A DNA stretch of 32,000 nt, taken from the NCBI GenBank assembly GCA_021650915.1, contig CP091279.1, positions 1,080,001 to 1,112,000 on the forward strand. Direction: 5' to 3'. The translations under genes and the position numbers were made by a program. How positions within the stretch are numbered: position 1 is the first letter of the stretch; each line of letters begins with the position of its first letter. Under the pieces are notes generated by a model. It saw only the letters and a list, made by a program, of their open reading frames with translations. It did not search any database and was not told the origin of the DNA. The stretch is from Candidatus Brocadia sp. (GTDB taxonomy: Bacteria; Planctomycetota; Brocadiia; Brocadiales; Brocadiaceae). Positions 1 to 12,214 of this stretch are shown one piece after another.

Positions 1-1
1 G

Positions 2-298
2 GGACTGGAATTTACCTTTGACTTTCAAATTGCTTACCGGCAAACTGAACTTTTAATTAAGGCATTTAACACAATAAATAAACTTAATCTTCCTCATTTT
101 CTCTTCACATGGGATGATGTTAAGCAAGTAAGAGAAAAACAAACCGAAAAAAAGGTAATTGGTCTGGCAGTAATCAATAACGAAGACCGTGAAGTGAAAG
201 ATGAATACCTTGAAGCCTTGCAAAACAAGGGTGCCGAGTTTATTTTATGGACGGAAAGAAATAGGCCAGAGAACATCAAAAAGCTGAAGGCGGCTTAA
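2..298 (+). CDS. 3' end of an upstream CDS cut by the window edge. Identity is unresolved; by position it could be hsdM or an R-M accessory gene.
   Basis: Frame 2 is open from the window edge to TAA at 296-298 (...NKGAEFILWTERNRPENIKKLKAA*). The stop overlaps the hsdS start in TAAAATG. No diagnostic motif is visible in the 98 codons present. Confidence 0.45.
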   Translation, partial: GLEFTFDFQIAYRQTELLIKAFNTINKLNLPHFLFTWDDVKQVREKQTEKKVIGLAVINNEDREVKDEYLEALQNKGAEFILWTERNRPENIKKLKAA

Positions 299-299
299 A

Positions 300-1478
300 A
301 TGTCTGAGTGGAAGGAATATAAATTTTCAGATTTTGTTCATATCAATCCTACCTTAAAGTTGAGTATAGGAGAAACATATTCTTTTGTTGAAATGAAAGA
401 CCTTAGTAACGGTCATAAATTCTGCACTCCGAGCATAGAAAGAAAACTAACAAGCGGTTCAAAATTTCAGGAAGGTGATACATTATTTGCTCGAATAACT
501 CCGTGTTTAGAGAATGGGAAAATATGTCAAGTACGTGGTTTAAAGAATGGTGTAGGTTTTGGCTCAACTGAATTTTTTGTTTTTCGCGGTAAGCATGATG
601 TTTCCGATAATGAATTTGTCTTTTATTTGTCTCGATGGGATGAAGTGCGGTCGTTTGCTGAAATGAATTTTGACGGAACATCTGGACGTCAAAGAGTTCC
701 AAAAGAATCACTTGACAATCTTTTTTTAAAATTACCCCCTCTCTCCGAACAAAAATCCATCGCCTCCATCCTCAGCAGCTTAGATGACAAGATAGACCTG
801 CTGCACCGTCAGAACAAAACCTTAGAGGCATTGGCGGAGACGTTGTTCAGGCAGTGGTTTGTGGAGGAAAATGAATCTTTGGAAATCGCAAAATTAAAAG
901 ACTTTTGTAATCATCTAAAGGCAAATGTCAATCCTTTAAAACAGCCTGACAAAATATTCCATCATTACAGCATACCTGCATTTGATGAAGGACAAGAACC
1001 TGAAATTACTCCAGGAAGAGAAATAAGAAGTAACAAGTATCAAATAAAGGAAGGTACAATTCTGATTTCAAAATTAAACCCTCGCTTCCCTCGTGTATGG
1101 CCGATTCTCGAAAATATCGGAAAAAATCATTCAATCTGTTCTACGGAATTTCAAGTTGTCGAACCAAAAGATTCAAAATACTTTGGATTTATCCTTTGCT
1201 TTCTAAAATCAAAAGCAGTAAAAGATGAATTAATTCAATCAACAAGTGGCACAAGTGGCAGTCATCAAAGAGTTAGTCCTGAAGATATTTTTAACTTAAC
1301 TATTCCTGTTACAAATGACGATAAGTTAAATGAATTCAATCTTATTACTAATCCATATTGGGATAAGATTAAAAATAACAAACGCCAAATCCGCACCCTC
1401 ATCCGTTTACGTGATACGCTCTTGCCCAAGCTGATGAACAGAGAGGTACGGGTTAAAGAGTTGGATTTACTTACTTAG
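300..1478 (+). CDS. hsdS: Type I restriction-modification specificity subunit HsdS
   Basis: 392 aa with two variable TRD halves separated by the classic central conserved region LPPLSEQKSIASILSSLDDKIDLLHRQNKTLEALAETLFRQWFVE. The matching C-terminal conserved helix is IRTLIRLRDTLLPKLMN. Confidence 0.93.
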   Translation: MSEWKEYKFSDFVHINPTLKLSIGETYSFVEMKDLSNGHKFCTPSIERKLTSGSKFQEGDTLFARITPCLENGKICQVRGLKNGVGFGSTEFFVFRGKHDVSDNEFVFYLSRWDEVRSFAEMNFDGTSGRQRVPKESLDNLFLKLPPLSEQKSIASILSSLDDKIDLLHRQNKTLEALAETLFRQWFVEENESLEIAKLKDFCNHLKANVNPLKQPDKIFHHYSIPAFDEGQEPEITPGREIRSNKYQIKEGTILISKLNPRFPRVWPILENIGKNHSICSTEFQVVEPKDSKYFGFILCFLKSKAVKDELIQSTSGTSGSHQRVSPEDIFNLTIPVTNDDKLNEFNLITNPYWDKIKNNKRQIRTLIRLRDTLLPKLMNREVRVKELDLLT

Positions 1479-1522
1479 ATAAAATGCTATGATCTTTTTC
1501 CAGGTAAAGCATTGGAGAAGCT

Positions 1523-4174
1523 ATGACAAACGATAGCAAGACTTACGAAATTTTCAAAAGCGGTAGCGCTTGGATACGTGCGGACTTTCATCTTCATACG
1601 AAGGCAGACAAAGAGTTCAAATATGACGGTAAAGAGAATGAGTTTGTAAATGCTTATGTTCAGCAATTGAGAGATGCTGGAATTTCCATTGGCGCTATTA
1701 CGAATCATAATAAATTTGATCTTGGCGAGTTTAAAGCCCTCAGGACTAAAGCACATAAAGAAGAAATTTTCCTTCTGCCAGGAATCGAGCTTTCAGTAAA
1801 GGATGGTTCAAATGGACTCCACACACTGGTTATTTTTAGTGATGAGTGGGTAATCAATCAAGAGAACACAGACTATATCAATAGTTTTCTGAGTGTGGCT
1901 TTTGCCGGTCAATCGAATTATGAGAATGAAAATGCCCGCACAAATCACGACCTGTTGGAGACCATCCGGGAGCTGGATAAATTCTCCAAGGAGTATTTTC
2001 TGATTTTTGCGCATGTAGAGGCAGATAATGGTTTGTGGGGCGGCTTCTCCGGAGGACGTATTCAGGAATTGGGTGAAAATGATTTATTTAAGCAGCGTAC
2101 CCTGGCATTTCAGAAAGTAATTACTCACGATGTTCCCGACCGTGTCTGTAGAACAAAGGTTCAAAAGTGGCTTGGTAGCTGGTATCCCGCAGAGGTGGAA
2201 GGCTCGGATTGCAAGGCCATTGATCAGATAGGCCAGGGTAAACCTATCTATCTGAAAGTCGGCAGCTTTACTTTTGAGGCAGTCAAGTATGCCTTGCGGG
2301 ATTTTCAAAATCGGGTCTCACAGGAAGTAAAAACATACAAACATTCCTATATCAGAAGTATTTCCTTCATGGGCGGCGTGCTGAATGGGAAAACCGTGCA
2401 TTTATCTCCGGAGCTTAACACCTTTATTGGTATTCGCGGTAGTGGAAAGTCTTCTATCCTTGAAGCGACCCGATATGTGCTGGATATTCATATTGACCAA
2501 AAAGACCCCGACAAGAAGTACAAAGAATCCTTGGTAGCCCATACTTTGGGCAGTGGTGGAAAGGCTATTATTCATGCGGTTGACCGTCATGGGCAGGAGT
2601 ATGAAATTCGCCGTATCCTTAATGAATATCCTGATGTGTATGTCAGGGGGGAAACCCATACCGGAATAAAAATCAGGGAAACTATTCTTCATAAGCCTAT
2701 TTATTTTGGACAAAAGGATCTTTCCAGAAGCGGTGAAGGTTTTGAAAAAGATCTTGTGGAAAAGTTGGTCGGGGAAAAGCTGGTAGATATACGACGCAGG
2801 ATTGAGGAACAGAAACAGCGAGTGCATGAGGTGGTTGATCACTTTCAAAAACTCGCAAATGTTGATGAGCAGAAAAAGGAATACGAAGGAAGGAAACAGG
2901 ACGCAGAATTTCGTTTGAAGATATTCAAGGATCACAGAGTGGAAGAAAAGCTTCAGAGACAGGTTGATTTCGAAGCAGATTCCAGAAAGATCGGACAAAT
3001 TGTTAAATTTATTGAAGGGTATCTTGCCGCATTAACTGAATTCATCAGCCGCTTTGAAGACGATTTTAATAACCTCAAAATTTATAAATCAAATCAGAAT
3101 GCCGTTTTTTTTGAAGTTTTTTTTGCCATCTATGAAAAATTAATTGTGGCATTTAAGGGTCTTAAGCAAAGTCTGGAATCAGGCAAGCTTGCATTGTCCG
3201 AATTGAAAAACAAGGCTAATGAATTTGACGCCCTAAAGAAGGGTCTCAAGGAAGAGTTTGCCGACGTTGAACGGAAGCTTGCTGAGGAACTGAGGATGAG
3301 CGGGGCTCAGTCTGTCCGACCGGATGATTTTATTAAACTTCGCAAGACGGTAGATCAGGCAAAACAGATGCTCGAACTTCTGGAAAAGCAACAGACGCAG
3401 AAAACCACGGTTAGAAATGAGCTTGCCAGGGAGTTATCGGCTTTGAATGAGCTATGGCATGAGGAGTTCAGGGCAATCCAGGCAGAGTTGGGAAAGATTA
3501 ACGTAAATCAACCCGCCTTGACGATTAGGTCAGATTACAAGGGAGAGAAAGAAGCTTTTGTTATATTTATGAAAGATATATTTAAAGGTAGCCGCATTAG
3601 AGAAAATGTCTTCCAGTTGTTGGCAGATACCTTTTCCGATTATGGTGGAATGTACCGCGATTTTGCAAAGGTCGAGACTATTCTTGGAAGTTCTTCAGAA
3701 ACATTTAAGCTGTATTTTAACGAAAACTTGAAAGGTCTGCTAACCTGGCAAGTGCCGAATAAATATACCATAAATTATCATGACAAAGAACTTAAACATC
3801 ACTCTCTTGGACAACGCGCATCTGCATTAATCCTTTTTGTTCTTAGTCAGAAGGAGAATGACGTTATCGTTATTGACCAACCGGAAGATGATCTTGATAA
3901 TCAAACGATTTATGAGGATGTCATCAAATTGATTCGTAGAATGAAATGCGGCACTCAGTTTATATTTGCAACCCACAACGCGAATCTCCCTGTCCTTGGT
4001 GATGCCGAACAGATTCATGCTTGTCGTTACTCTGATGAAAGCATACAACTGAAAACTGGCAGCATTGACAATCAGGACTTGCAAAATGAAATCATTAACA
4101 TCATGGAAGGCGGTGAAGAGGCGTTTCACCGACGCAAGGAGATATATCAACTATGGAACCCACAGAGCTTTTAG
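1523..4174 (+). CDS. PHP-domain phosphoesterase fused to an SMC/RecF-like ABC ATPase with a central coiled coil. This is the R-M-linked family that I recall, from memory only, NCBI naming TrlF-like AAA ATPase.
   Basis: 883 aa. The N-terminal PHP signature is WIRADFHLHTKAD...ITNHNKF...FAHVEADNG. Walker A is GIRGSGKSSILEA. A K/E/Q-rich coiled-coil stretch of ~250 aa follows. The C-terminal signature/Walker B/D-loop is SLGQRASALILFVL...VIVIDQPEDDLD...FIFATHNANLPVLGDAE. A GGAG RBS lies upstream of the ATG. Confidence 0.8.
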   Translation: MTNDSKTYEIFKSGSAWIRADFHLHTKADKEFKYDGKENEFVNAYVQQLRDAGISIGAITNHNKFDLGEFKALRTKAHKEEIFLLPGIELSVKDGSNGLHTLVIFSDEWVINQENTDYINSFLSVAFAGQSNYENENARTNHDLLETIRELDKFSKEYFLIFAHVEADNGLWGGFSGGRIQELGENDLFKQRTLAFQKVITHDVPDRVCRTKVQKWLGSWYPAEVEGSDCKAIDQIGQGKPIYLKVGSFTFEAVKYALRDFQNRVSQEVKTYKHSYIRSISFMGGVLNGKTVHLSPELNTFIGIRGSGKSSILEATRYVLDIHIDQKDPDKKYKESLVAHTLGSGGKAIIHAVDRHGQEYEIRRILNEYPDVYVRGETHTGIKIRETILHKPIYFGQKDLSRSGEGFEKDLVEKLVGEKLVDIRRRIEEQKQRVHEVVDHFQKLANVDEQKKEYEGRKQDAEFRLKIFKDHRVEEKLQRQVDFEADSRKIGQIVKFIEGYLAALTEFISRFEDDFNNLKIYKSNQNAVFFEVFFAIYEKLIVAFKGLKQSLESGKLALSELKNKANEFDALKKGLKEEFADVERKLAEELRMSGAQSVRPDDFIKLRKTVDQAKQMLELLEKQQTQKTTVRNELARELSALNELWHEEFRAIQAELGKINVNQPALTIRSDYKGEKEAFVIFMKDIFKGSRIRENVFQLLADTFSDYGGMYRDFAKVETILGSSSETFKLYFNENLKGLLTWQVPNKYTINYHDKELKHHSLGQRASALILFVLSQKENDVIVIDQPEDDLDNQTIYEDVIKLIRRMKCGTQFIFATHNANLPVLGDAEQIHACRYSDESIQLKTGSIDNQDLQNEIINIMEGGEEAFHRRKEIYQLWNPQSF

Positions 4175-5310
4175 AAATCGTTGGCCGTGACGAAGACAGC
4201 AATAATCAGTTCAAGGCGAATTTTCATAATGTTGACTCGCTGGCTGCTGAAATGGTTGCCTTTAGCAACAGCGGTGGAGGGCGGATTTTTATAGGCATTA
4301 CTAATGACGGGAGAATTACAGGATTAACGCGCCCGGATATGGGGCGGCTTAATCAGCTTGTTTCCAATGCGGCTTCGCAGTCTGTACGCCCTCCTATTAA
4401 TCCCCAGACTGAAAATGTGTCATTACCCGACGGGTTGGTCATGGTGGTTACCATACAGAAGGGTATCAGTAAACCTTATATGGATAATACCGGCGCAATC
4501 TGGGTAAAAAGTGGGTCTGATAAACGCAGGGTAACGTCTCGTGAAGAAATACAGCGGATGTATCAAAACGCGGGTCTTATTCATGGAGACGAAGTCCCTG
4601 CAAATGGAATGACTATAGGCGATCTGGATATGGATTATTTCCGGAGCTTTTTTAAGAAGCAGTATGGTGAATCTCTTGAGGAACAGAATTTGCCATTGAA
4701 TACCATTCTTGAAAATATGAATCTTCTGAAGGATGGTGTTCTGAAAGTTGCCGGTGCGCTGCTGTTTGCCAGAAGACAGGAATTTTACCTGCCTGCCTTT
4801 TGTGTTAAGTGTGTGACATATCCGGGAGATGATATCCATGCTTCAGAATACCGGGATAGCGAAGATATTACCGGCAAACTGGAGGAAGTATTCAACCGTT
4901 CGCTCGGTTTTATTACCAGAAACTTACGCCATATTCAGTATGACCAGAATGTGAACTCACCTGGTAGACTTGAAATTCCGAAAATCACCCTTGAGGAACT
5001 GCTAACAAATGCTTTGGTGCACCGTGATTATTTCGTTCTTGCGCCAGTTCGCATTTTCATCTTTAACAATCGCATTGAAATAATCAGTCCGGGGCATCTG
5101 CCAAATAACCTAACTATAGAGAATATCAAGAAAGGGAACTCGAATATCAGAAACCCAATCCTGACATCATTTGCAACGAAAATTCTGCCTTATCGTGGTT
5201 TAGGAAATGGTATTAGAAGGGCGATAAAGGAGTATAGTGACATCGAATTTGAAGATGACCAAGCGGGAAATGCCTTTAGGGTTATCATTCGCAGGTCATC
5301 TGATAAGTAG
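4153..5310 (+). CDS. AlbA_2 (Schlafen-like) domain plus HATPase_c_4 domain protein (COG2865-type putative nucleic-acid-binding protein that lacks the usual C-terminal HTH)
   Basis: 385 aa. The AlbA_2-type N-terminus is EDSNNQFKANFHN..LAAEMVAFSNSGGGRIFIGITNDG. The HATPase_c_4-type motif is EELLTNALVHRDY...IEIISPG. Its start overlaps the preceding gene by 22 nt, consistent with one operon. Confidence 0.75.
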   Translation: MEPTELLEIVGRDEDSNNQFKANFHNVDSLAAEMVAFSNSGGGRIFIGITNDGRITGLTRPDMGRLNQLVSNAASQSVRPPINPQTENVSLPDGLVMVVTIQKGISKPYMDNTGAIWVKSGSDKRRVTSREEIQRMYQNAGLIHGDEVPANGMTIGDLDMDYFRSFFKKQYGESLEEQNLPLNTILENMNLLKDGVLKVAGALLFARRQEFYLPAFCVKCVTYPGDDIHASEYRDSEDITGKLEEVFNRSLGFITRNLRHIQYDQNVNSPGRLEIPKITLEELLTNALVHRDYFVLAPVRIFIFNNRIEIISPGHLPNNLTIENIKKGNSNIRNPILTSFATKILPYRGLGNGIRRAIKEYSDIEFEDDQAGNAFRVIIRRSSDK

Positions 5311-5369
5311 GTTTTAAGTGTGGAAGATTCAACTATTCGAAAAATTTGAATAGTTCAAATGGTGAAGGA

Positions 5370-5930
5370 ATTGGTTTATAGTATTACTCCATAAAAACTT
5401 CTTTTTTCTGTAATGTTTTCTTTGTGATCTTTGTATAAAACTTTGCGTTCTTTGTGGTTGAACTTTTTTGGTTGCAACTGTGCTGCGTTATAATATTACT
5501 GTGTAAAAGCTTCTTTTTTTTGTAAGTTTTTTCACAAACCCCTTTCAGGAGGTACCGTTTTTTTATGAGTGAAAGATTGCTTCGCTTCACTCGCAATGAC
5601 AACATGCAGTGTACCATCAAAGTGCATGGTCGCTGTCATTGCGAGGGGCCTTTTCCGAAGCAATCTCCCCGCTTTCACAATGGAGAATTGGTTGCGGCCT
5701 TGCTGCGCTATAGTATTACTGTATAAAAACTTCTTTTTTCTGTGAGTTTTTTCACAAACCCCTTTCAGGAAGTACCGTTTTTTTATGAGTGAAAGATTGC
5801 TTCGCTTCACTCGCAATGACAACATGCAGTGTACCATCAAAATGCATGGCCGGTGTCATTGCGAGGGCCTTTTCCGAAGCAATCTCCCCGCTTTCATAAA
5901 GGAAATTTGGTTGCGGCTGTGCCGCGCTAT
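5370..5930 (+). repeat. Tandem array of a ~220-bp hairpin-containing repeat (MITE/REP-like): one truncated unit plus two full units
   Basis: Full units are at 5470-5689 and 5690-5908, each bounded by the ~22-bp motif GGTTGCGGCTGTGCCGCGCTAT (last copy 5909-5930). A truncated unit at ~5370-5469 shares TATAGTATTACT..AAAAACTTCTTTTTTCTGT. Each full unit carries the long imperfect inverted repeat AGATTGCTTCGCTTCACTCGCAATGACA...TGTCATTGCGAGGGCCTTTTCCGAAGCAATCT (5574-5666 and 5794-5885). Confidence 0.9.
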
Positions 5931-5971
5931 GATATGCAGATGTAATAATTCTAAAAGACAGGAGGTGTAAA

Positions 5972-6202
5972 ATGTTGTCAGTTAAAGGTACTTATAAGGA
6001 TGGAAAGGTGATTATTCAACAGGAGATAAAAACTGAAAAACCGATTAATGTGATAGTCACTTTTTTGGAAGAGGTAAAGACGCCTGGTGTAAGAAGACTT
6101 GACATAAACAAGTTCTCATTCAAAAAGGCAAGGAAGTTGTTGGAAGGTTATAAAGGGTCGTTAAGTGATGCGATCATAGAAGAGCGCAGGAGCGCTGTAT
6201 GA
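5972..6202 (+). CDS. Putative type II antitoxin (VapB-position partner of the downstream PIN gene)
   Basis: 76 aa. A GGAGG RBS lies 7 nt upstream. The short beta-strand-type N-terminus is MLSVKGTYKDGKVIIQQEI. The stop overlaps the PIN gene start in ATGA at 6199-6202. Confidence 0.6.
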   Translation: MLSVKGTYKDGKVIIQQEIKTEKPINVIVTFLEEVKTPGVRRLDINKFSFKKARKLLEGYKGSLSDAIIEERRSAV

Positions 6203-6624
6203 AGACTTTTCTGGATACTTCTTCTCTCATTAAGCTTTATCATCAGGAAGAAGGGGCTGATTTTGTAATGGATGCCCTTTCCAACGATATCGAAGAAATA
6301 CTCCTCTCAGAGCTTGCCGTTTTGGAATTCCGTTCTGCCTTATGGAAGAAGATAAGGGAAAAGGAGATAGAGGAGAAGGTAGCCATCGAAGTTATTCAAT
6401 GTTTCCAAAAAGACAGGGATAACTTCCAATGAATATTGTTGCAATCTGATATTGTCGAATCGGCTTCGTACTTACTGATGAAATACGGCAACCGTGGTTT
6501 AAGAACGTTAGATTCCCTGCAATTAGCAACAGCATTAACTTTGAGGGAAGAGAAATGTATTTTTTTTACCTCCGATAAGTTATTGCGGACTTTGTTTGCA
6601 GAAGAACAGCTTAAAGTTTTATAA
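6199..6624 (+). pseudogene. vapC: PIN-domain (VapC-type) toxin gene interrupted by one in-frame TGA at 6430-6432
   Basis: The N-terminal part is MKTFLDTSSLIKLYHQEEG, with the typical PIN acidic D5. The C-terminal part is LRTLDSLQLATAL...FFTSDKLL, carrying the conserved D. ORFs 6199-6432 and 6436-6624 are in the same frame and separated only by TGA. Confidence 0.7.
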
Positions 6625-6638
6625 AGGTTCGCTGTACG

Positions 6639-9600
6639 TTGAGCAAAATTACCGAAAGCGATATTGAACAATATACCATTGAGGAATTAAAAACCCTGGG
6701 CTTTCAGTTCCTTCACGGGCCAGATATTGCTCCCGATGGTGAGTTTCCCGAACGGCAGGCTTATAGTGACATTGTTTTGGTGGGCAGGCTTAGGGCTGCC
6801 ATTCAAAGGCTTAATCCAAACATCCCTGCGGGTGCCAGGGAACAGGCACTTCGTGAAGTGCAGCGTATAAATTCACCTGAATTGCTTACCAATAATGAGT
6901 CATTTCACCATTTCCTTACCGATGGTGTTCCAGTTACTTATCGTTCTCCTCTCCCTCTGGGAGAGGTTGGGAGAGGGTCTGATGAAAAATCAGATTACGT
7001 CTGGCTCATCGATTTTAACAATCCTCTCAACAATGAATTTCTGATGGTCAATCAGTACACGGTCATTGAGAACAACCAGAACAAACGGCCTGATATTTTA
7101 CTCTTTGTCAATGGCATTCCCTTAGTGCTGATTGAATTAAAAAATCCAGCAGATGAAAATGCTACCATCAAAAAGGCCTTTGACCAGATACAAACCTACA
7201 AGGCGACTATTCCAAGTCTTTTTACCTTCAACGCCTTTTGTGTTATTTCTGATGGTCACGAATGCAAGGCTGGCAGCACTTCGGCGGGTTACAATCGTTT
7301 TATGGCATGGAAGCTTGCAAACGGCAAAAAAGAGGTTTCAAAGTTTGTACCGGAGTTAGAAATCCTCATACAAGGGATGCTAAATCCCATCACCTTATTA
7401 GACCTTGTTCGCAACTTCATCGTATTTGAAAAATCTATTTCTACGAAACCCTCACCCTTACATCCCTCTCCCAGTGGGAGAGGGAACGCGGGAGAGGGTT
7501 CTGTCTTACAGATTGAAACGGTGAAGAAGGTGGCAGCCTATCATCAATATTATGCGGTCAATAAGGCTATCGAAAGTACCCTGCGGGCGGCAGGGTACTT
7601 TCAACCCTCCCTCAGTCCCTCCCAAAAGGAGGGAATCAATGCCTCTCCCTTTGTGAGAGATACAAGAGAGGGTGTTTGTAGAGAGAGTCATTATAGAGGT
7701 GGTTTGGTGTTTTCCGGGTTACTCAATAAGGCAAAAGAGTTAAGAAAAAAACAAACTCCGGCGGAAGAAGTGTTTTGGCAATTAGTGCGCGACAAAAAAT
7801 TCTTTGGTCTAAAATTCCGAAGACAACACCAGATTGGACCTTACATTGTTGACTTTTACTGCCACGAACATAAACTGATTGTTGAATTAGATGGAGAAAT
7901 TCATCAAATAGAAGGACAGCAAAAACATGATACAACGAAGGATAAATATCTTACCTCATTAGGAAACAAAGTTATTCGTTTCGCCAATAATGAGATTTTA
8001 ACCCAAACAGATAAAACCCTTGAAAAAATAGCCAATCTCCTCTCCCTTTGGGAGAGGTCGGGAGAGGGTAACGTAGGCAATAAAAAAGCAGGAGTTATTT
8101 GGCATACACAGGGTTCTGGGAAAAGCCTGAGCATGGTGTTTTATGCGGGCAAACTGATTACATCCGAGGCGATGCAAAATCCCACTATTGTTGTTATCAC
8201 TGACCGTAATGACCTGGATGACCAGTTGTTTGACACCTTTGCATCTTCAAAACAGTTGTTGAGGCAAGAGCCGGTGCAGGCAAGAGACAGGGAGGATTTG
8301 AAAGACCTGTTGAAAGTGGCTTCCGGCGGCATTGTGTTCACTACTATTCAAAAGTTTTTACCAGAAGCAGGTAAGGCAGCATACGATCGGCTTTCTGACA
8401 GGGACAACATCGTTGTTATAGCGGATGAAGCCCACAGAACCCAATATGGCTTTGAGGCAAAGTTGCATGACGAAAGAGACAAGGACACCAAAGAGGTCAT
8501 TGGAAAACGCATAGCCTACGGCTTTGCCAAGTATATGAGAGATGCCTTACCCAATGCGACTTACATTGGTTTTACCGGCACACCCATTGAAAGCACAGAC
8601 GTAAACACCCCGGCAGTATTTGGGCAGTATGTTGACATATACGATATTTCACAATCAGTCGCCGATGGCGCCACCGTTAAGATTTATTACGAAAGCCGTC
8701 TGGCAAAGGTCAATCTGGATGAAGAAGGCAGACGGTTGATTGAGGAGTTTGATAAAGAGCTTGAAGAAGATGAGGAAATAACCGACAAGCAAAGGGCTAA
8801 AGCCAAGTGGACAAAGCTTGAGGCCATTGTAGGCAATCAGGAAAGGATAAAAAACCTGGCCAGGGATATTGTTACTCATTTTGAGCAGCGTCAAGCGGTA
8901 TTTGATGGTAAGGCTATGATTGTAGCGATGAGTCGCAGGATTGCAGTTGACCTCTACAATGAGATCATCAAGTTAAGACCGGAGTGGTATAATGACGACC
9001 TGACCAAGGGCGTAATCAAAGTTATTATGACTGCATCCAGTGCCGATGGCCCTGTTATGCAGAAGCAGCACACCACGAAAACACAACGCAAGGCTTTATC
9101 TGATAGAATGAAAGACCCGGCAGACCCCTTGAAACTGGTTGTTGTTCGGGATATGTGGCTTACGGGTTTTGATGCGCCTTGTTTGCATACGCTTTATGTA
9201 GATAAACCCATGAGAGGTCACAATCTGATGCAAGCCATAGCACGGGTAAACAGGATATTCAAAGACAAACCCGGTGGTTTAGTGGTGGATTATTTAGGCA
9301 TTGCAACTGACCTCAAAAAGGCATTGGCCTTCTATGCCGATTCAGGGGGAAAAGGCGATCCGGCAGAGAGCCAGGAAAAGGCCGTTGAGATGTTTATTGA
9401 AAAATTGGAGGTAGTACGCCAACTCTTCCTTGAAGAAAGCAAAACAAAAGAAGTTATCCTTGCCGCAGAACCTACCGCTTATTATGGCAACTATCCGGGA
9501 ACAGGCTTTAATTACAAGCGTTTCTTTTCAGCGTCACCCAAAGAAAAACTTTCGATCATCTTGCAGGCAGAGGAACATATTTTGGGTCTGGCAGATGGTA

Positions 9601-10214
9601 AGAACCGTTTTATCAATGAGGTAACATTGCTTAGTAAGGCTTTTGCCTTGTCCATACCTCACGAAAAAGCATTGGCGGTAAAAGATGAAGTTGCATTCTT
9701 TCAGGCTGTAAAGGCACGGCTTGTAAAGTTTATAAGCGACGGCACAGGCAGGTCAGATATAGATATCGAGACGGCCATAAAGCAGATAATCGACGAGGCA
9801 TTGAGTTCAGACCAGGTTGTAGATATTTTTGATGCAGCAGGTATAAAAAAGCCTGAGATATCCATTTTGTCTGAGGAATTTTTGTTAGAGATACAGGGAA
9901 TGAAGCATCAGAACCTTGCCCTTGAATTGTTGAAGCGAATCCTCAATGACGAAATCAGAAGCCGTTCAAAAACTAACCTGGTGAGAAGTAAGGCATTGCT
10001 TGAAATGCTTGAGACCACCATCAAAAAGTATCAGAACAATTTGCTTTCAGCCGCCGAAATTATTCAGAAATTGATTGAGTTAGCCAGAGAGATCAAGACA
10101 GAAGACCGAAGAGGTGTAAAACTTGGTTTGTCCGAAGATGAATTGGCTTTCTACGATGCGTTGGAGACGAACAACAGTGCAGTTCAGGTTTTAGGTGATG
10201 AACGGCTCAGATTG
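6639..10214 (+). CDS. hsdR: Type I restriction endonuclease subunit HsdR, 5' exon. It carries in-frame insertions and is interrupted by a group II intron; the exon end is approximate.
   Basis: TTG start. The N-terminus is [24 protein letters not shown]. The nuclease-core region is [20 protein letters not shown]. Helicase motifs are [13 protein letters not shown] (I), [13 protein letters not shown] (II), IGFTGTP (III) and QAIARVNR (VI). HsdR homology ends at ...[24 protein letters not shown], and the ORF then runs 9 more codons into the intron to a TGA at 10239-10241. Confidence 0.9.
6948..6978 (+). repeat. 31-nt palindromic mini-element, copy 1, in frame inside hsdR
   Basis: Sequence CCTCTCCCTCTGGGAGAGGTTGGGAGAGGGT, translated as [12 protein letters not shown]. 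It interrupts the conserved ...PVTYR / ...YVWLIDF N-terminal region. Confidence 0.85.
7464..7499 (+). repeat. 36-nt palindromic mini-element, copy 2, in frame inside hsdR
   Basis: Sequence CCCTCTCCCAGTGGGAGAGGGAACGCGGGAGAGGGT, translated as [13 protein letters not shown]. It contains a perfect 9-bp hairpin, CCCTCTCCC/GGGAGAGGG. Confidence 0.85.
7642..7673 (+). repeat. Degenerate copy 3 of the palindromic mini-element, at the left edge of the DUF559 module
   Basis: Sequence CCTCTCCCTTTGTGAGAGATACAAGAGAGGGT. It has the same ends as the other copies, but the G-rich arms are decayed. Confidence 0.6.
7731..8035 (+). other. DUF559 (Vsr-like/restriction-endonuclease-fold) domain encoded in frame inside hsdR
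   Basis: [59 protein letters not shown]...[19 protein letters not shown] matches the DUF559 pattern (R..T.aE..LW..Lr...f.RQ..ig.yivDF.c....l.iElDG..H). It sits between the conserved [13 protein letters not shown] segment and helicase motif I. Confidence 0.8.
8039..8069 (+). repeat. 31-nt palindromic mini-element, copy 4, at the right edge of the DUF559 module
   Basis: Sequence CCTCTCCCTTTGGGAGAGGTCGGGAGAGGGT, translated as [12 protein letters not shown]. Confidence 0.85.
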
Positions 10215-12214
10215 GCGTGCCTTGAAGTATGGGATACCTGAGTGGTTGAAAATATCACCTCTGCGAGCCTAAATCCTCGTAGAGAAGTTTGTACCTATGC
10301 GTATACAAAGGAGCAATCCGTGTGCGTAGAAGGATAGCGTATTCCCGTGAGGGGTATGACGGAGTTACGAGGTACAGACGACCTTTTGGGGTGTATGAAT
10401 ATGGCGTGTTAGTTCGTGCCAACTGCCCTTTCTCAGTAAAGCACTGACAAATGTCCTTGTTGGAGATGATGCAAGCGATTCGGTGAAAACATCTCTGGAT
10501 AATGCGTTTGAACATACATCACGAAGGGAAAAGGGGTAATCCATATGACCGGGGGAGGACTTACGTCTTGGGAAGAAATTCCCTAACAGCGAGGTATAAG
10601 GGAAATCCGAAATCCAAGCTGTATGAGATGGTGACGGACGACTGGCTCTCACAGGTCTGTCTTTGAAGTCGTCAGCAGTGCTCATAATAGTTTCTGGTGT
10701 AAGCCGGAAATGAAGGGGCATAACCGTAGTGGAGTTGATGAAAGTGGTAGATTGAATACGTTCCATGAGAAAAGAGACTCTTTGCATGGGCAAGTAGTAG
10801 CAAGAGCCTCTCTTGTTTTGCCTCTGTCAGGAGGAATCTCGACTCAGGAAACACGATTGACAAGTCTATTATCCGGAATCAATCAAAAGGAACATATCGG
10901 GAGATGCTTAAGTATCATTCTTTAAGAGACAAGGTATTCAGTCTGAGAAACCTTTATGCGGCTTTTGGGCACGTAAAGAAGAATAAAGGCAAGGCTGGTC
11001 TCGACAGGGTAAGTATTAAGCAGTTTGAAAGTGACCTTGAGAATAATCTACAAGCTATTCACAAGGAACTGAAAACCGCCATATACAACCCTGCGCCCGT
11101 CTTAAGGGTCTACATTCCCAAAGGCAGGCATGACAAGAGACCTCTTGGCATTCCCATTGTCAAGGACAGGGTAGTACAGCAGGCGTTCAGACAAATCATA
11201 GAGCCAATATTCGAGAAAGAATTCTCGGATAACAGCTTTGGATTTCGTCCAAACAGATGCTGTCATGATGCTATCAAACGGATTGAACAGTATAAGCAGC
11301 AAGGGTATCGGAACATTTTGGACGCCGATATAAAGGCGTTCTATGACACCATACCTCACAAGCTTATCATGAACTCCTTGCGTGAGAAAATCGCTGACGG
11401 ATGGGTGTTGAACAGTATCGAGAACATGCTCAAGGCAGGGGTCATGGAGAACGGCATCGTGCACGAGACAAATCAAGGCACTCCGCAAGGAGGCGTCATA
11501 TCCCCCTTGCTTGCAAACCTTATCGGTGACATCATCGACAAGGAGCTTGAAAAGGCAGGATATAAATTTGTCCGCTATGCCGATGACTTCATTGTCATGA
11601 CTAAAACAAAAGAAGAACTCCCTACCGCCCTTCAGTACGTCAAAGAAATCATCGAAGGGAAACTTGAAATGAAGCTGAGCGAGGATAAAACCAGGCTCAC
11701 CAACTTCAAACGAGGCTTCCGGTTTCTCGGATATAATTTCATGGGCAAGAACAAGGGTGTAAGCATGAAATCCCTGGACAAACTCAAGGACGCCGTTAGA
11801 GACATCACCAAACGCACACAAGGCGTCAACCTGCAAGCCGTCATTGATACATTAAATCCTGTCATAAGGGGACATGTCAACTATTTTCGGCTGGGCAATG
11901 TACAAACGGTATATCGCTCGTTAGACTGCTGGGTACGCATGAGACTGAGAAGTTTCAAGTTTTCGAGAAAATGGAAAACTGACAACAAACGTTTCCCGGT
12001 ACACCGATTCTTTAAGATGGGGTTACTCTCATTTGAAAGAGAATTTCTTAAGGCACGTGCGAAGGCATGATAGTTTACTTTTCTCTGCTCCAGAGCAACA
12101 CTATGGGGTCGCTAACTACGGGAAAGCCGTATGGTTTAAAAGGATACTTTGTCACGTTGTCCAAAGTATCTGGCGACGATTGGGGGTTGGAGGCGGTTCG
12201 CCTCCTTCCTACCA
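10215..12214 (+). mobile_element. Group II intron (~2.0 kb) inserted in the 3' part of hsdR; boundaries are good to about +/-6 nt
   Basis: An RT/maturase ORF lies inside it. HsdR homology stops at ~10211-10217 and resumes at ~12213-12218. About 690 nt of structured non-coding sequence precede the ORF. The 3' end is GGAGGCGGTTCGCCTCCTTCCTAC (a hairpin followed by a ..AC end). The 5' end reads GCGTGCC rather than a clean GTGYG. Confidence 0.75.
10904..12070 (+). CDS. Group II intron reverse transcriptase/maturase (no endonuclease domain)
   Basis: 388 aa. Motifs are RPLGIPIVKDRVVQQA (RT2), FGFRPNR (RT3), DADIKAFYDTIPH (RT4), GTPQGGVISPLLANL (RT4-5) and VRYADDFIV (RT5 YADD). The X/maturase region is LNPVIRGHVNYFRLGN. 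Confidence 0.95.
   Translation: MLKYHSLRDKVFSLRNLYAAFGHVKKNKGKAGLDRVSIKQFESDLENNLQAIHKELKTAIYNPAPVLRVYIPKGRHDKRPLGIPIVKDRVVQQAFRQIIEPIFEKEFSDNSFGFRPNRCCHDAIKRIEQYKQQGYRNILDADIKAFYDTIPHKLIMNSLREKIADGWVLNSIENMLKAGVMENGIVHETNQGTPQGGVISPLLANLIGDIIDKELEKAGYKFVRYADDFIVMTKTKEELPTALQYVKEIIEGKLEMKLSEDKTRLTNFKRGFRFLGYNFMGKNKGVSMKSLDKLKDAVRDITKRTQGVNLQAVIDTLNPVIRGHVNYFRLGNVQTVYRSLDCWVRMRLRSFKFSRKWKTDNKRFPVHRFFKMGLLSFEREFLKARAKA

Follow-up and report, generated by a model that had tools for sequence, protein, structure and literature searches.

The temperature restriction locus (Trl) of Photorhabdus laumondii is an operon, trlR-trlF-trlG, that halts growth at 36 °C (Hapeshi 2020, PMC7554251). Its TrlG protein carries an AlbA_2 domain (residues 14-128) and a HATPase_c_4 domain (residues 298-365), and TrlF is the adjoining "histidinol phosphatase" (PMC7554251). 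All stable temperature-tolerant mutants of Photorhabdus lie in trlG and none in trlF, although trlF is about twice as long; deletion of the whole operon also confers tolerance (PMC7554251). Judged by its sequence, a stretch of 32,000 nucleotides from Candidatus Brocadia sp. (assembly GCA_021650915.1, contig CP091279.1, positions 1,080,001 to 1,112,000 of the forward strand; hereafter the window) holds a copy of this already named trlF-trlG pair, set inside a type I restriction-modification (R-M) locus. A previous description of the window, made without database searches (the sequence-only reading), had called the two genes uncharacterized, which is wrong in the sense of unnamed, and had traced the name TrlF to R-M linkage; the name stands for the temperature restriction locus (PMC7554251).

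A second point of reference is Ppl, a single-gene anti-phage system of Escherichia coli P2-like prophages. A review describes Ppl as a 3'-5' single-stranded DNA exonuclease that requires 3'-OH ends and is inhibited by nucleoside triphosphates bound to the PHP and NTPase domains (PMC12904381); an anti-Ppl gene is present in phage Bas63 (PMC11482910). A third is the class of genes embedded in the operons of R-M, bacteriophage exclusion (BREX), and DISARM systems. The TrlG of IncC plasmids (WP_015056404.1) stands in a supplementary table of such embedded genes as FAM_00002, and the study names TrlFG neither among its HEC systems nor anywhere in its main text (Payne et al. 2024, bioRxiv 10.1101/2024.01.29.577857). 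TrlF-TrlG is present in none of the defense catalogs searched, and PADLOC-DB v2 contains no full-length model for TrlF or TrlG. On many plasmids, the NCBI annotation of the two products reads "TrlF family AAA-like ATPase" and "RNA-binding domain-containing protein."

The pair itself is not new, and the window genes are a further member of a known, named, and functionally unproven gene pair. New here are the universal overlap of the two genes, the 3.76-kb block in which they are exchanged, the linkage of pairs to R-M and BREX operons, and an E-x4-Q-F-K motif in TrlG. The favored interpretation, held with a probability of roughly 0.6, is that TrlF-TrlG is a horizontally exchanged, translationally coupled, autonomous anti-phage cassette lodged in the gap between hsdS and hsdR as an extra layer independent of R-M.

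The TrlF and TrlG proteins

The trlF gene (1523-4174, + strand) encodes 883 residues, and trlG (4153-5310, + strand) encodes 385. The 3' end of the former overlaps the start of the latter by 22 nt (4153-4174, + strand), as the sequence-only reading had described. NCBIfam model NF045780 (TrlF family AAA-like ATPase) matches the first open reading frame (ORF) at 564.2 bits against a cut-off of 350, and the match runs end to end (residues 14-876 correspond to profile positions 2-944). Weaker matches are made to the NCBIfam sister models Spaf_1101 (169 bits) and Ppl (NF042955; 152.9 bits, cut-off 1000). The ORF at 1523-4174 is a TrlF-family protein composed of a PHP phosphoesterase domain and an ABC ATPase of the SMC/Rad50 type into which a coiled coil is inserted, which bears out the earlier description of a PHP domain joined to a Rad50/RecF-like ATPase with GSGKS, a coiled coil, and IDQPEDDLD.

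The PHP domain occupies approximately residues 16-270 (1568-2332, + strand). Its Pfam score over residues 23-151 is 24.5 bits, just under the gathering score of 26.4; among the domains proposed earlier, SMC_N (located at Walker A), AlbA_2, and HATPase_c_4 were recovered by profile hidden Markov model (HMM) searches, and PHP stayed below threshold. The domain is accepted despite this score because none of its metal ligands (D21, H23, H25, H62, E89, H100, H164, and D229) varies among 27 aligned TrlF homologs, because the AlphaFold2 model is confident in this part (predicted local distance difference test [pLDDT] about 90), and because Foldseek matches it to the PHP domains of RNase AM (7ug9) and of Pol III alpha. 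The aligned homologs are 60-82% identical, and homologs in this range are spread across phyla.

The ATPase head is divided by the coiled coil. Its N-terminal half (2348-2722, + strand) includes Walker A (GIRGSGKS, residues 303-310) and the Q-loop residue Q397, and a profile alignment sets this stretch against SMC and Rad50 heads. The C-terminal half (3755-4162, + strand) includes SLGQR (residues 761-765), Walker B (VIVIDQPEDDLD, residues 781-792, with IDQPEDDLD at 784-792), and the H-loop residue H818, and it contains a Pfam AAA_21 match at residues 757-822. Walker A, Q397, SLGQR, the DQPEDD of Walker B, and H818 are all invariant in the same alignment. The insert itself (2741-3508, + strand; residues 407-662) is modeled as long, confident helices, and for the remainder of the TrlF model outside the PHP part Foldseek returns the heads of SMC, JetC, MukB, and Rad50 with their coiled coils. 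A sequence search of the PDB with TrlF gave no match, a profile search gave only weak matches to SMC/Rad50 heads, and a fold search with the TrlF model returned no Ppl structure among its matches.

TrlG comprises an N-terminal AlbA_2, or Schlafen-core, domain (4192-4533, + strand; residues 14-127; Pfam 75.9 bits) and a C-terminal GHKL-like HATPase_c_4 domain (5044-5250, + strand; residues 298-366; 55.3 bits). With its model (pLDDT 89) as query, Foldseek pairs the whole protein with DIP2311 (PDB 3LMM; E 8e-20), the N-terminal domain with the Schlafen core of SLFN5/11/12/13/14 (probability 1.00, E 1e-5 to 5e-4), and the C-terminal part with the CA (ATP-binding) domains of histidine kinases. Residues E282, N286, H290, R291, and G314 are invariant in TrlG sequences. 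In a profile alignment to the SLFN11 structure, the Schlafen motif E-x4-E-F-K falls opposite E14-x4-Q19-F-K21 of TrlG, and among 62 TrlG sequences all keep E14 and K21 and at least 90% keep Q19. The catalytic E-x4-E...D triad of Schlafens is not present as such, and residues 50-52, where its third acidic residue would fall, are not strictly conserved. Because the second catalytic Glu is a Gln (Q19), the idea that TrlG is an RNase with standard Schlafen catalysis was set aside. From sequence and model together, TrlG is predicted to be a nucleic-acid-binding protein of the Schlafen fold that also has a GHKL-like domain. Both TrlF and TrlG are intact in the window, with all the invariant residues of their families in place.

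A second AlbA_2/HATPase_c_4 gene is present in the same genome (locus L011, G000:C1:3973200-3979728). Its 402-residue product is 30% identical to TrlG and keeps the canonical E-x4-E-F-K, and the gene belongs to a type III system, where it is flanked by the ResIII (res) and N6_N4 methyltransferase (mod) genes and has no TrlF in its vicinity. Proteins of the COG2865 type are also embedded in R-M loci on their own.

A gene pair exchanged as one unit

The association of the two genes was followed in 80 metagenome loci retrieved with an alignment query (TrlF at 43-63% identity) and in four assembly loci; a single-protein TrlF search of genome contigs had yielded one locus only. A TrlG homolog directly follows TrlF in 68 of the 75 loci that could be judged and is missing from seven with enough downstream DNA. 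The genes overlap in every one of the 68 pairs, by 13, 19, 22, or 28 nt, with single cases of 4 and 10 nt. Such an overlap likely couples the translation of trlG to that of trlF. Because the same overlapping pair recurs in dozens of unrelated contigs, its existence is beyond chance.

Loci with near-identical TrlFs in different operons reveal the limits of the exchanged DNA. Homology extends from the start of trlF to about 20 nt before the stop codon of trlG; the block common to the different operons is 3.76 kb long and 82-87% identical, and the flanks are unrelated. Because this block matches the two genes almost exactly, trlF-trlG is a unit that has been exchanged between operons.

Embedding of the pair in restriction-modification and BREX operons

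Genomic context was counted in 61 loci with at least 3 kb of flanking sequence, using profile searches and Pfam scans of neighboring genes. A DNA methyltransferase lies within 5 kb of the pair in 26 of the 61 loci (within 500 nt in 16 of these), and none was found in the shell between 5 and 10 kb (0/61). Nearly all of these nearby methyltransferases (25/26) are co-directional with the pair, and some component of an R-M or BREX system or a helicase is present at 32 of the 61 loci. As a rough expectation, a methyltransferase would occur in about 6% of random 20-kb windows (11 matches in the 4.05 Mb of the source genome, itself rich in R-M). The link to R-M loci is real. The sequence-only reading had named a lack of preferential linkage as evidence against itself; what is found is strong and repeated linkage to R-M/BREX-type operons (34 of 61 pairs in the pooled sets).

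The host operons are of many kinds. Among type I systems, the order hsdR-trlF-trlG-hsdS-AAA_13-hsdM is found in L040-L045 and hsdS-trlF-hsdR in L032, and further embeddings occur in L065, L093, L112, and a Tn7-like element of IncC plasmids. Type ISP enzymes host the pair in L018 and L085. In L034, L038, L046, and L078, an MmeI-type enzyme, a DEAD-box helicase-like gene, and a T5orf172/MUG113 gene precede trlF-trlG. Type III mod/res operons are also represented (e.g., mod-trlFG-res in L089), as are BREX (brxC...pglX-trlF-trlG-pglZ-brxL in L047) and operons of an SNF2 helicase and a DUF1156 methylase (L055, L066, and L079). These contexts are dispersed over the TrlF tree, which has BREX at three separate positions, type I at four or more, and type III at five or more.

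Several details of these operons were recorded in passing. In the MmeI-type operons (approximately positions 3800-13800 of L034, L038, L046, and L078), the T5orf172 gene overlaps the start of trlF by 4 nt. On pNDM-1_Dok01 and other IncC plasmids, hsdR-trlF-trlG-hsdS-AAA-hsdM is cargo of the Tn7-like element; in pNDM-1_Dok01 (L108, NC_018994.1, 158137-178764) the element has tnsA/B/C/D-like genes and its cargo reads HTH-hsdR-trlF-trlG-hsdS-AAA_13-hsdM. The gene between hsdS and hsdM encodes a 371-residue AAA_13 ATPase (L042:6701-7816, L043:15041-16156, and L108:14047-15162) and is a second embedded gene of the operons with this layout. A BREX-like locus (L068) contains a pglX-like gene, trlF, an ORF of 745 residues (L068:6378-8615), and brxL; TrlG is absent, and the 745-residue ORF has no Pfam match.

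Stand-alone pairs, solo TrlF, and distribution

TrlF is a large family, with at least 4,985 homologs in one search. Within the Planctomycetota, TrlF exceeds the cut-off in 28 of 401 genomes (7%), and it does so in one of eight other genomes of the genus; this patchy distribution across phylum and genus marks TrlF as an accessory gene. Planctomycetota loci were read with profile HMMs, phmmer with the window proteins being too insensitive for divergent TrlFs. Twenty such loci include nine with TrlG, six of them in methylase/SNF2, type III, or BREX operons, and 11 with a solo TrlF, one of which is near R-M genes. Proteins of about 640 residues whose match to the TrlF model is confined to positions 287-944 (approximately 280-325 bits) were seen in about 25 Planctomycetota genomes (e.g., G014:C42:50455-52305 and G315:C2:4872-6728); they look like ATPase-only TrlF relatives that lack the PHP domain.

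The pair is carried by 234 plasmids of PLSDB, 169 of them conjugative, and IncC plasmids such as pNDM-1_Dok01 are included. Stand-alone pairs lie beside housekeeping genes in Desulfobacca, in an island of toxin-antitoxin (TA) and insertion sequence (IS) genes, and in a SIR2-TPR/RHS island. For about half of the pairs, no R-M/BREX-type neighbor lies within 10 kb, which argues for an autonomous module over an obligate R-M accessory.

TrlF also occurs without TrlG, on the IncF plasmid pMAR2, on Listeria plasmids, and in several metagenome loci. A solo TrlF (465 bits) in the P2-like Yersinia phage vB_YenM_42.18 (L120, 8621-11239), annotated as a "chromosome partition protein," lies between gpA and gpQ, a known defense hotspot of P2-like phages, reportedly described by Rousset and colleagues in 2022. 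The solo proteins from plasmids, Listeria, metagenomes, and the phage all pass the cut-off of the TrlF model and not that of the Ppl model.

The pair as a proposed autonomous anti-phage cassette

As an autonomous module, the cassette would act against phages or other mobile genetic elements. A TrlF dimer might recognize DNA ends or a nucleotide state in the manner of Ppl and degrade DNA through its PHP exonuclease. TrlG would be the growth-arresting partner, an effector or adaptor that is restrained or directed by TrlF. Placement in methylation-based defense operons would provide co-expression and co-transfer, and the pair would add an independent layer of defense for which the R-M enzyme is not needed. 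The assignment of roles leans on Photorhabdus genetics: tolerant mutants arise in trlG only, and therefore loss of TrlF does not relieve the arrest. This points to TrlG as the component that arrests growth, and TrlF would be either unnecessary for the arrest or a brake on it. TrlF also has a defense flavor of its own in its distant match to Ppl, which has the same architecture, and the defense-oriented proposal of the sequence-only reading was a reasonable one. That interpretation is supported in part. Its narrower idea, a second effector layer or an anti-anti-restriction back-up coupled to R-M, is a candidate role only, and the pairs outside any R-M context, about half of the total, speak for an autonomous module instead.

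A number of points weigh against this interpretation. There is no experiment on record of phage defense by any TrlF-TrlG pair; widespread as the pair is, the sole phenotype on record is the growth arrest of Photorhabdus at 36 °C, a temperature limit in an insect pathogen (PMC7554251). TrlF falls far below the cut-off of the Ppl model (153 vs. 1000 bits), and therefore the biochemistry of Ppl may not carry over to it. The model of the TrlF ATPase head, N-terminal half included, is poor and of low confidence (mean pLDDT of TrlF, 72) and is used for no conclusion. TrlG has a Gln where Schlafen RNases have their second catalytic Glu, and because of this change it may be no nuclease and may bind nucleic acid rather than cut it. 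Lastly, co-directional linkage within 5 kb to R-M, BREX, or SNF2-DUF1156 genes is found for 34 of 61 pairs versus 2 of 16 solo TrlFs in the pooled sets (Fisher p = 0.002, indicative only, as related loci are counted as independent). The tie to methylation-based systems therefore seems to travel with TrlG, and this bias hints at a functional connection to those systems rather than hitch-hiking. The TrlG-like gene in the type III system of locus L011 conforms to this pattern.

Alternative interpretations

The main rival is kept alive by precisely that bias, although it is judged unlikely. It holds that TrlFG guards methylation-based immunity in the manner of PrrC or the phage anti-restriction-induced system (PARIS): the pair would be silent while the R-M or BREX system works and be triggered when a phage disables it (e.g., by an Ocr/ArdA DNA mimic or by depletion of S-adenosylmethionine [SAM]), so that TrlG, the TrlF nuclease, or both are released and the infection is stopped. 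The range of hosts suits such a role, as the cassette is found in type I, ISP, MmeI-type, and type III R-M, BREX, and SNF2/DUF1156 operons, usually between the methylase and the nuclease or helicase gene and often with 4-nt overlaps with its neighbors, and the linkage follows TrlG (34/61 pairs vs. 2/16 solo TrlFs). The TrlF ATPase head also has a weak AriA-like similarity, and a back-up role has been discussed for embedded ABC-ATPase systems with reference to PrrC/EcoprrI and Ocr-triggered PARIS (Payne et al. 2024, bioRxiv 10.1101/2024.01.29.577857). A guard would not be expected, however, in the half of pairs that have no such neighbor within 10 kb. Near-identical cassettes occur in type I and in MmeI-type operons, which is hard to square with a pair tailored to bind one particular enzyme. 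No trigger is on record, and in this genome hsdM carries a premature stop and trlFG is intact.

A more general form of this idea, also unlikely, would make TrlG-type Schlafen-like proteins and the nuclease-ATPase arm provided by TrlF a dedicated surveillance of SAM-dependent, methylation-based immunity as a whole (type I, ISP, IIL, and III R-M, BREX, and DISARM-like systems). A blocked or bypassed host system would be sensed and answered with growth arrest and DNA degradation. If so, the temperature restriction of Photorhabdus would be heat-triggered autoimmunity of a defense module that sets the thermal niche.

A quite improbable alternative to the autonomous cassette makes the pair a helper of restriction: TrlF, as an end-binding ATPase and PHP exonuclease, and TrlG, as its nucleic-acid-binding partner, would act on the DNA ends or stalled complexes left by the neighboring restriction enzyme, so that a break that could have been repaired ends with the invader destroyed. 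In line with this, Ppl reportedly depends on free 3'-OH ends, which endonucleases supply (PMC12904381). A Rad50/SbcC-like architecture combined with a nuclease recalls Mre11-Rad50, and most of the host systems are DNA-cleaving translocases. BREX is nevertheless among the hosts and is not known to cleave DNA, and stand-alone pairs, as well as solo TrlFs on plasmids and in the phage hotspot, have no partner enzyme at all.

Equally improbable is a role outside defense, with TrlG as a regulator and TrlF as an enzyme of repair or restriction alleviation that limits self-damage by R-M or answers stress such as heat; COG2865 proteins are annotated as transcription factors, eggNOG and NCBI label the family transcriptional regulator or RNA-binding protein, the Schlafen motif of TrlG lacks the second Glu, and residues 335-380 at the end of the TrlG model, arranged helix-helix-strand-strand, might form a small winged helix, but TrlG is without the HTH_24 domain of longer COG2865 proteins, carriage by 169 conjugative plasmids, by TA/IS islands, and in a P2 hotspot would be surprising for a repair helper, the locus is costly in Photorhabdus (growth arrest, PMC7554251), and the closest characterized relative, Ppl, is an anti-phage nuclease.

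The type I locus that hosts the pair

The position of the pair inside a type I R-M locus, as given in the sequence-only reading, stands: trlF-trlG lies between hsdS upstream and hsdR downstream, all on the + strand. The hsdS gene (300-1478; Pfam Methylase_S; PADLOC Specificity_I, 221 bits) is intact, and 44 nt separate its stop at 1478 from the start of trlF at 1523. It is preceded by the 3' end of a DUF1828/DUF1829 gene (2-298, + strand; Pfam, and PADLOC PDC-M24B), which belongs to another embedded cassette. Downstream, the 1.3 kb from trlG to hsdR hold an array of approximately 220-bp repeats (5370-5930), visible as duplicated ORF translations, and a TA-like pair (5972-6624, + strand) made up of a vapB-like ORF (5972-6202) and a PIN-domain ORF (6199-6624; Pfam PIN, 28.6 bits). 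An in-frame TGA at 6430-6432 interrupts the PIN ORF, whose truncated call of 77 residues recurs in a sister assembly (L116). The first exon of hsdR (6639-10241, + strand; TIGR00348, 598 bits; PADLOC REase_I, 1181 bits) contains a DUF559 insert at residues 363-468 and is interrupted by a group II intron, whose reverse transcriptase lies at 10904-12070. At least three embedded cassettes, namely PDC-M24, TrlFG, and a VapBC-like one, are stacked within the type I locus. A scan of positions 1-6800 for promoters and terminators performed no better than on shuffled sequence and is uninformative on operon structure.

The hsdM gene lies upstream, outside the window (G000:C1:1076930-1078975, window positions -3070 to -1025). 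It has an in-frame TAG at codon 94 (W94*; stop at window position -2791), where four sister assemblies (L116-L119) have TGG; their hsdM differs at eight other bases in 2046. If the TAG is real, the methylase of this strain has probably lost its function, and the type I enzyme as a whole with it, with trlF and trlG intact; alternatively, the TAG may be an assembly error.

The order hsdM-DUF6978-DUF1828/1829-hsdS-trlF-trlG is kept in the four sister assemblies (99% identity) and, amid different flanking genes, in a relative with an 81% identical TrlF. The order hsdS-trlF-trlG-...-hsdR is found also in L093 and L112, and an IMG/VR contig with a 41% identical TrlF (hsdM-hsdS-...-trlF-trlG-hsdR) matches the order of the window. 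The source genome as a whole is very rich in restriction systems. Profile searches detect hsdM/hsdS/hsdR-like genes in about six separate regions, and pairs of N6_N4-methylase and ResIII genes lie near 1.39 Mb and 3.98 Mb.

Comparison with known systems

The closest described counterpart is the TRL operon of P. laumondii DJC. As in the window, trlG directly follows trlF there, and TrlG is of the same length class with the same domain positions. In contrast to that operon, which has trlR upstream, the window has no trlR and no ORF in the 44 nt between the hsdS stop and the trlF start. The Photorhabdus operon is located between polA and dsbA, whereas the window pair resides in a type I R-M locus.

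Ppl resembles TrlF in its size (approximately 880 residues) and in its N-terminal PHP domain followed by a coiled-coil ABC ATPase, and the similarity is found at both ends of the protein (153 bits by NCBIfam, 111.8 bits by PADLOC). In contrast to Ppl, which acts alone, TrlF here is coupled to TrlG. Membership of TrlF in Ppl was rejected on the scores (152.9 bits against a cut-off of 1000; PADLOC Ppl, 111.8 bits) and on the pairing with TrlG, and by sequence TrlF is the sister family of this validated anti-phage protein. If the pair is a defense module, it would add a two-gene branch to the Ppl family.

PARIS, Gabija, Lamassu, and Septu, like TrlF-TrlG, combine an ABC ATPase with a second protein that is possibly a toxic effector. 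Local matches of TrlF to AriA of PARIS and GajA of Gabija fall in the Walker B/signature region and are short (22-32 bits). PARIS-type pairs differ in their TOPRIM partner, which is lacking here, and in that the TrlF ATPase itself has a nuclease domain. PARIS membership was rejected, the AriA matches amounting to 26-32 bits over about 60 residues and the partner being Schlafen-like, not TOPRIM; membership in PADLOC PDC-M49 and mad3 was rejected on score and architecture.

The Schlafen RNases SLFN11/12/13/14 have their core fold in common with the N-terminal domain of TrlG and differ in the motif, which is E-x4-E-F-K in the RNases and E-x4-Q-F-K in TrlG. The bacterial COG2865 protein DIP2311 (3LMM) resembles TrlG over its full length, and longer COG2865 proteins have an HTH_24 domain that TrlG lacks. 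A defensive function of the pair would give bacterial Schlafen-fold proteins a role beside a nuclease-ATPase.

In its placement, trlFG resembles the embedded genes of R-M, BREX, and DISARM operons (Payne et al. 2024, bioRxiv 10.1101/2024.01.29.577857), which are likewise co-directional and nested between type I subunits. The classic embedded case is PrrC in EcoprrI, nested between hsd genes on the same strand as trlFG is; PrrC differs in its anticodon-nuclease domain, which has no equivalent in TrlFG. As a defense module, TrlF-TrlG would be a clear example of a cassette that moves without a seam between different restriction and BREX operons.

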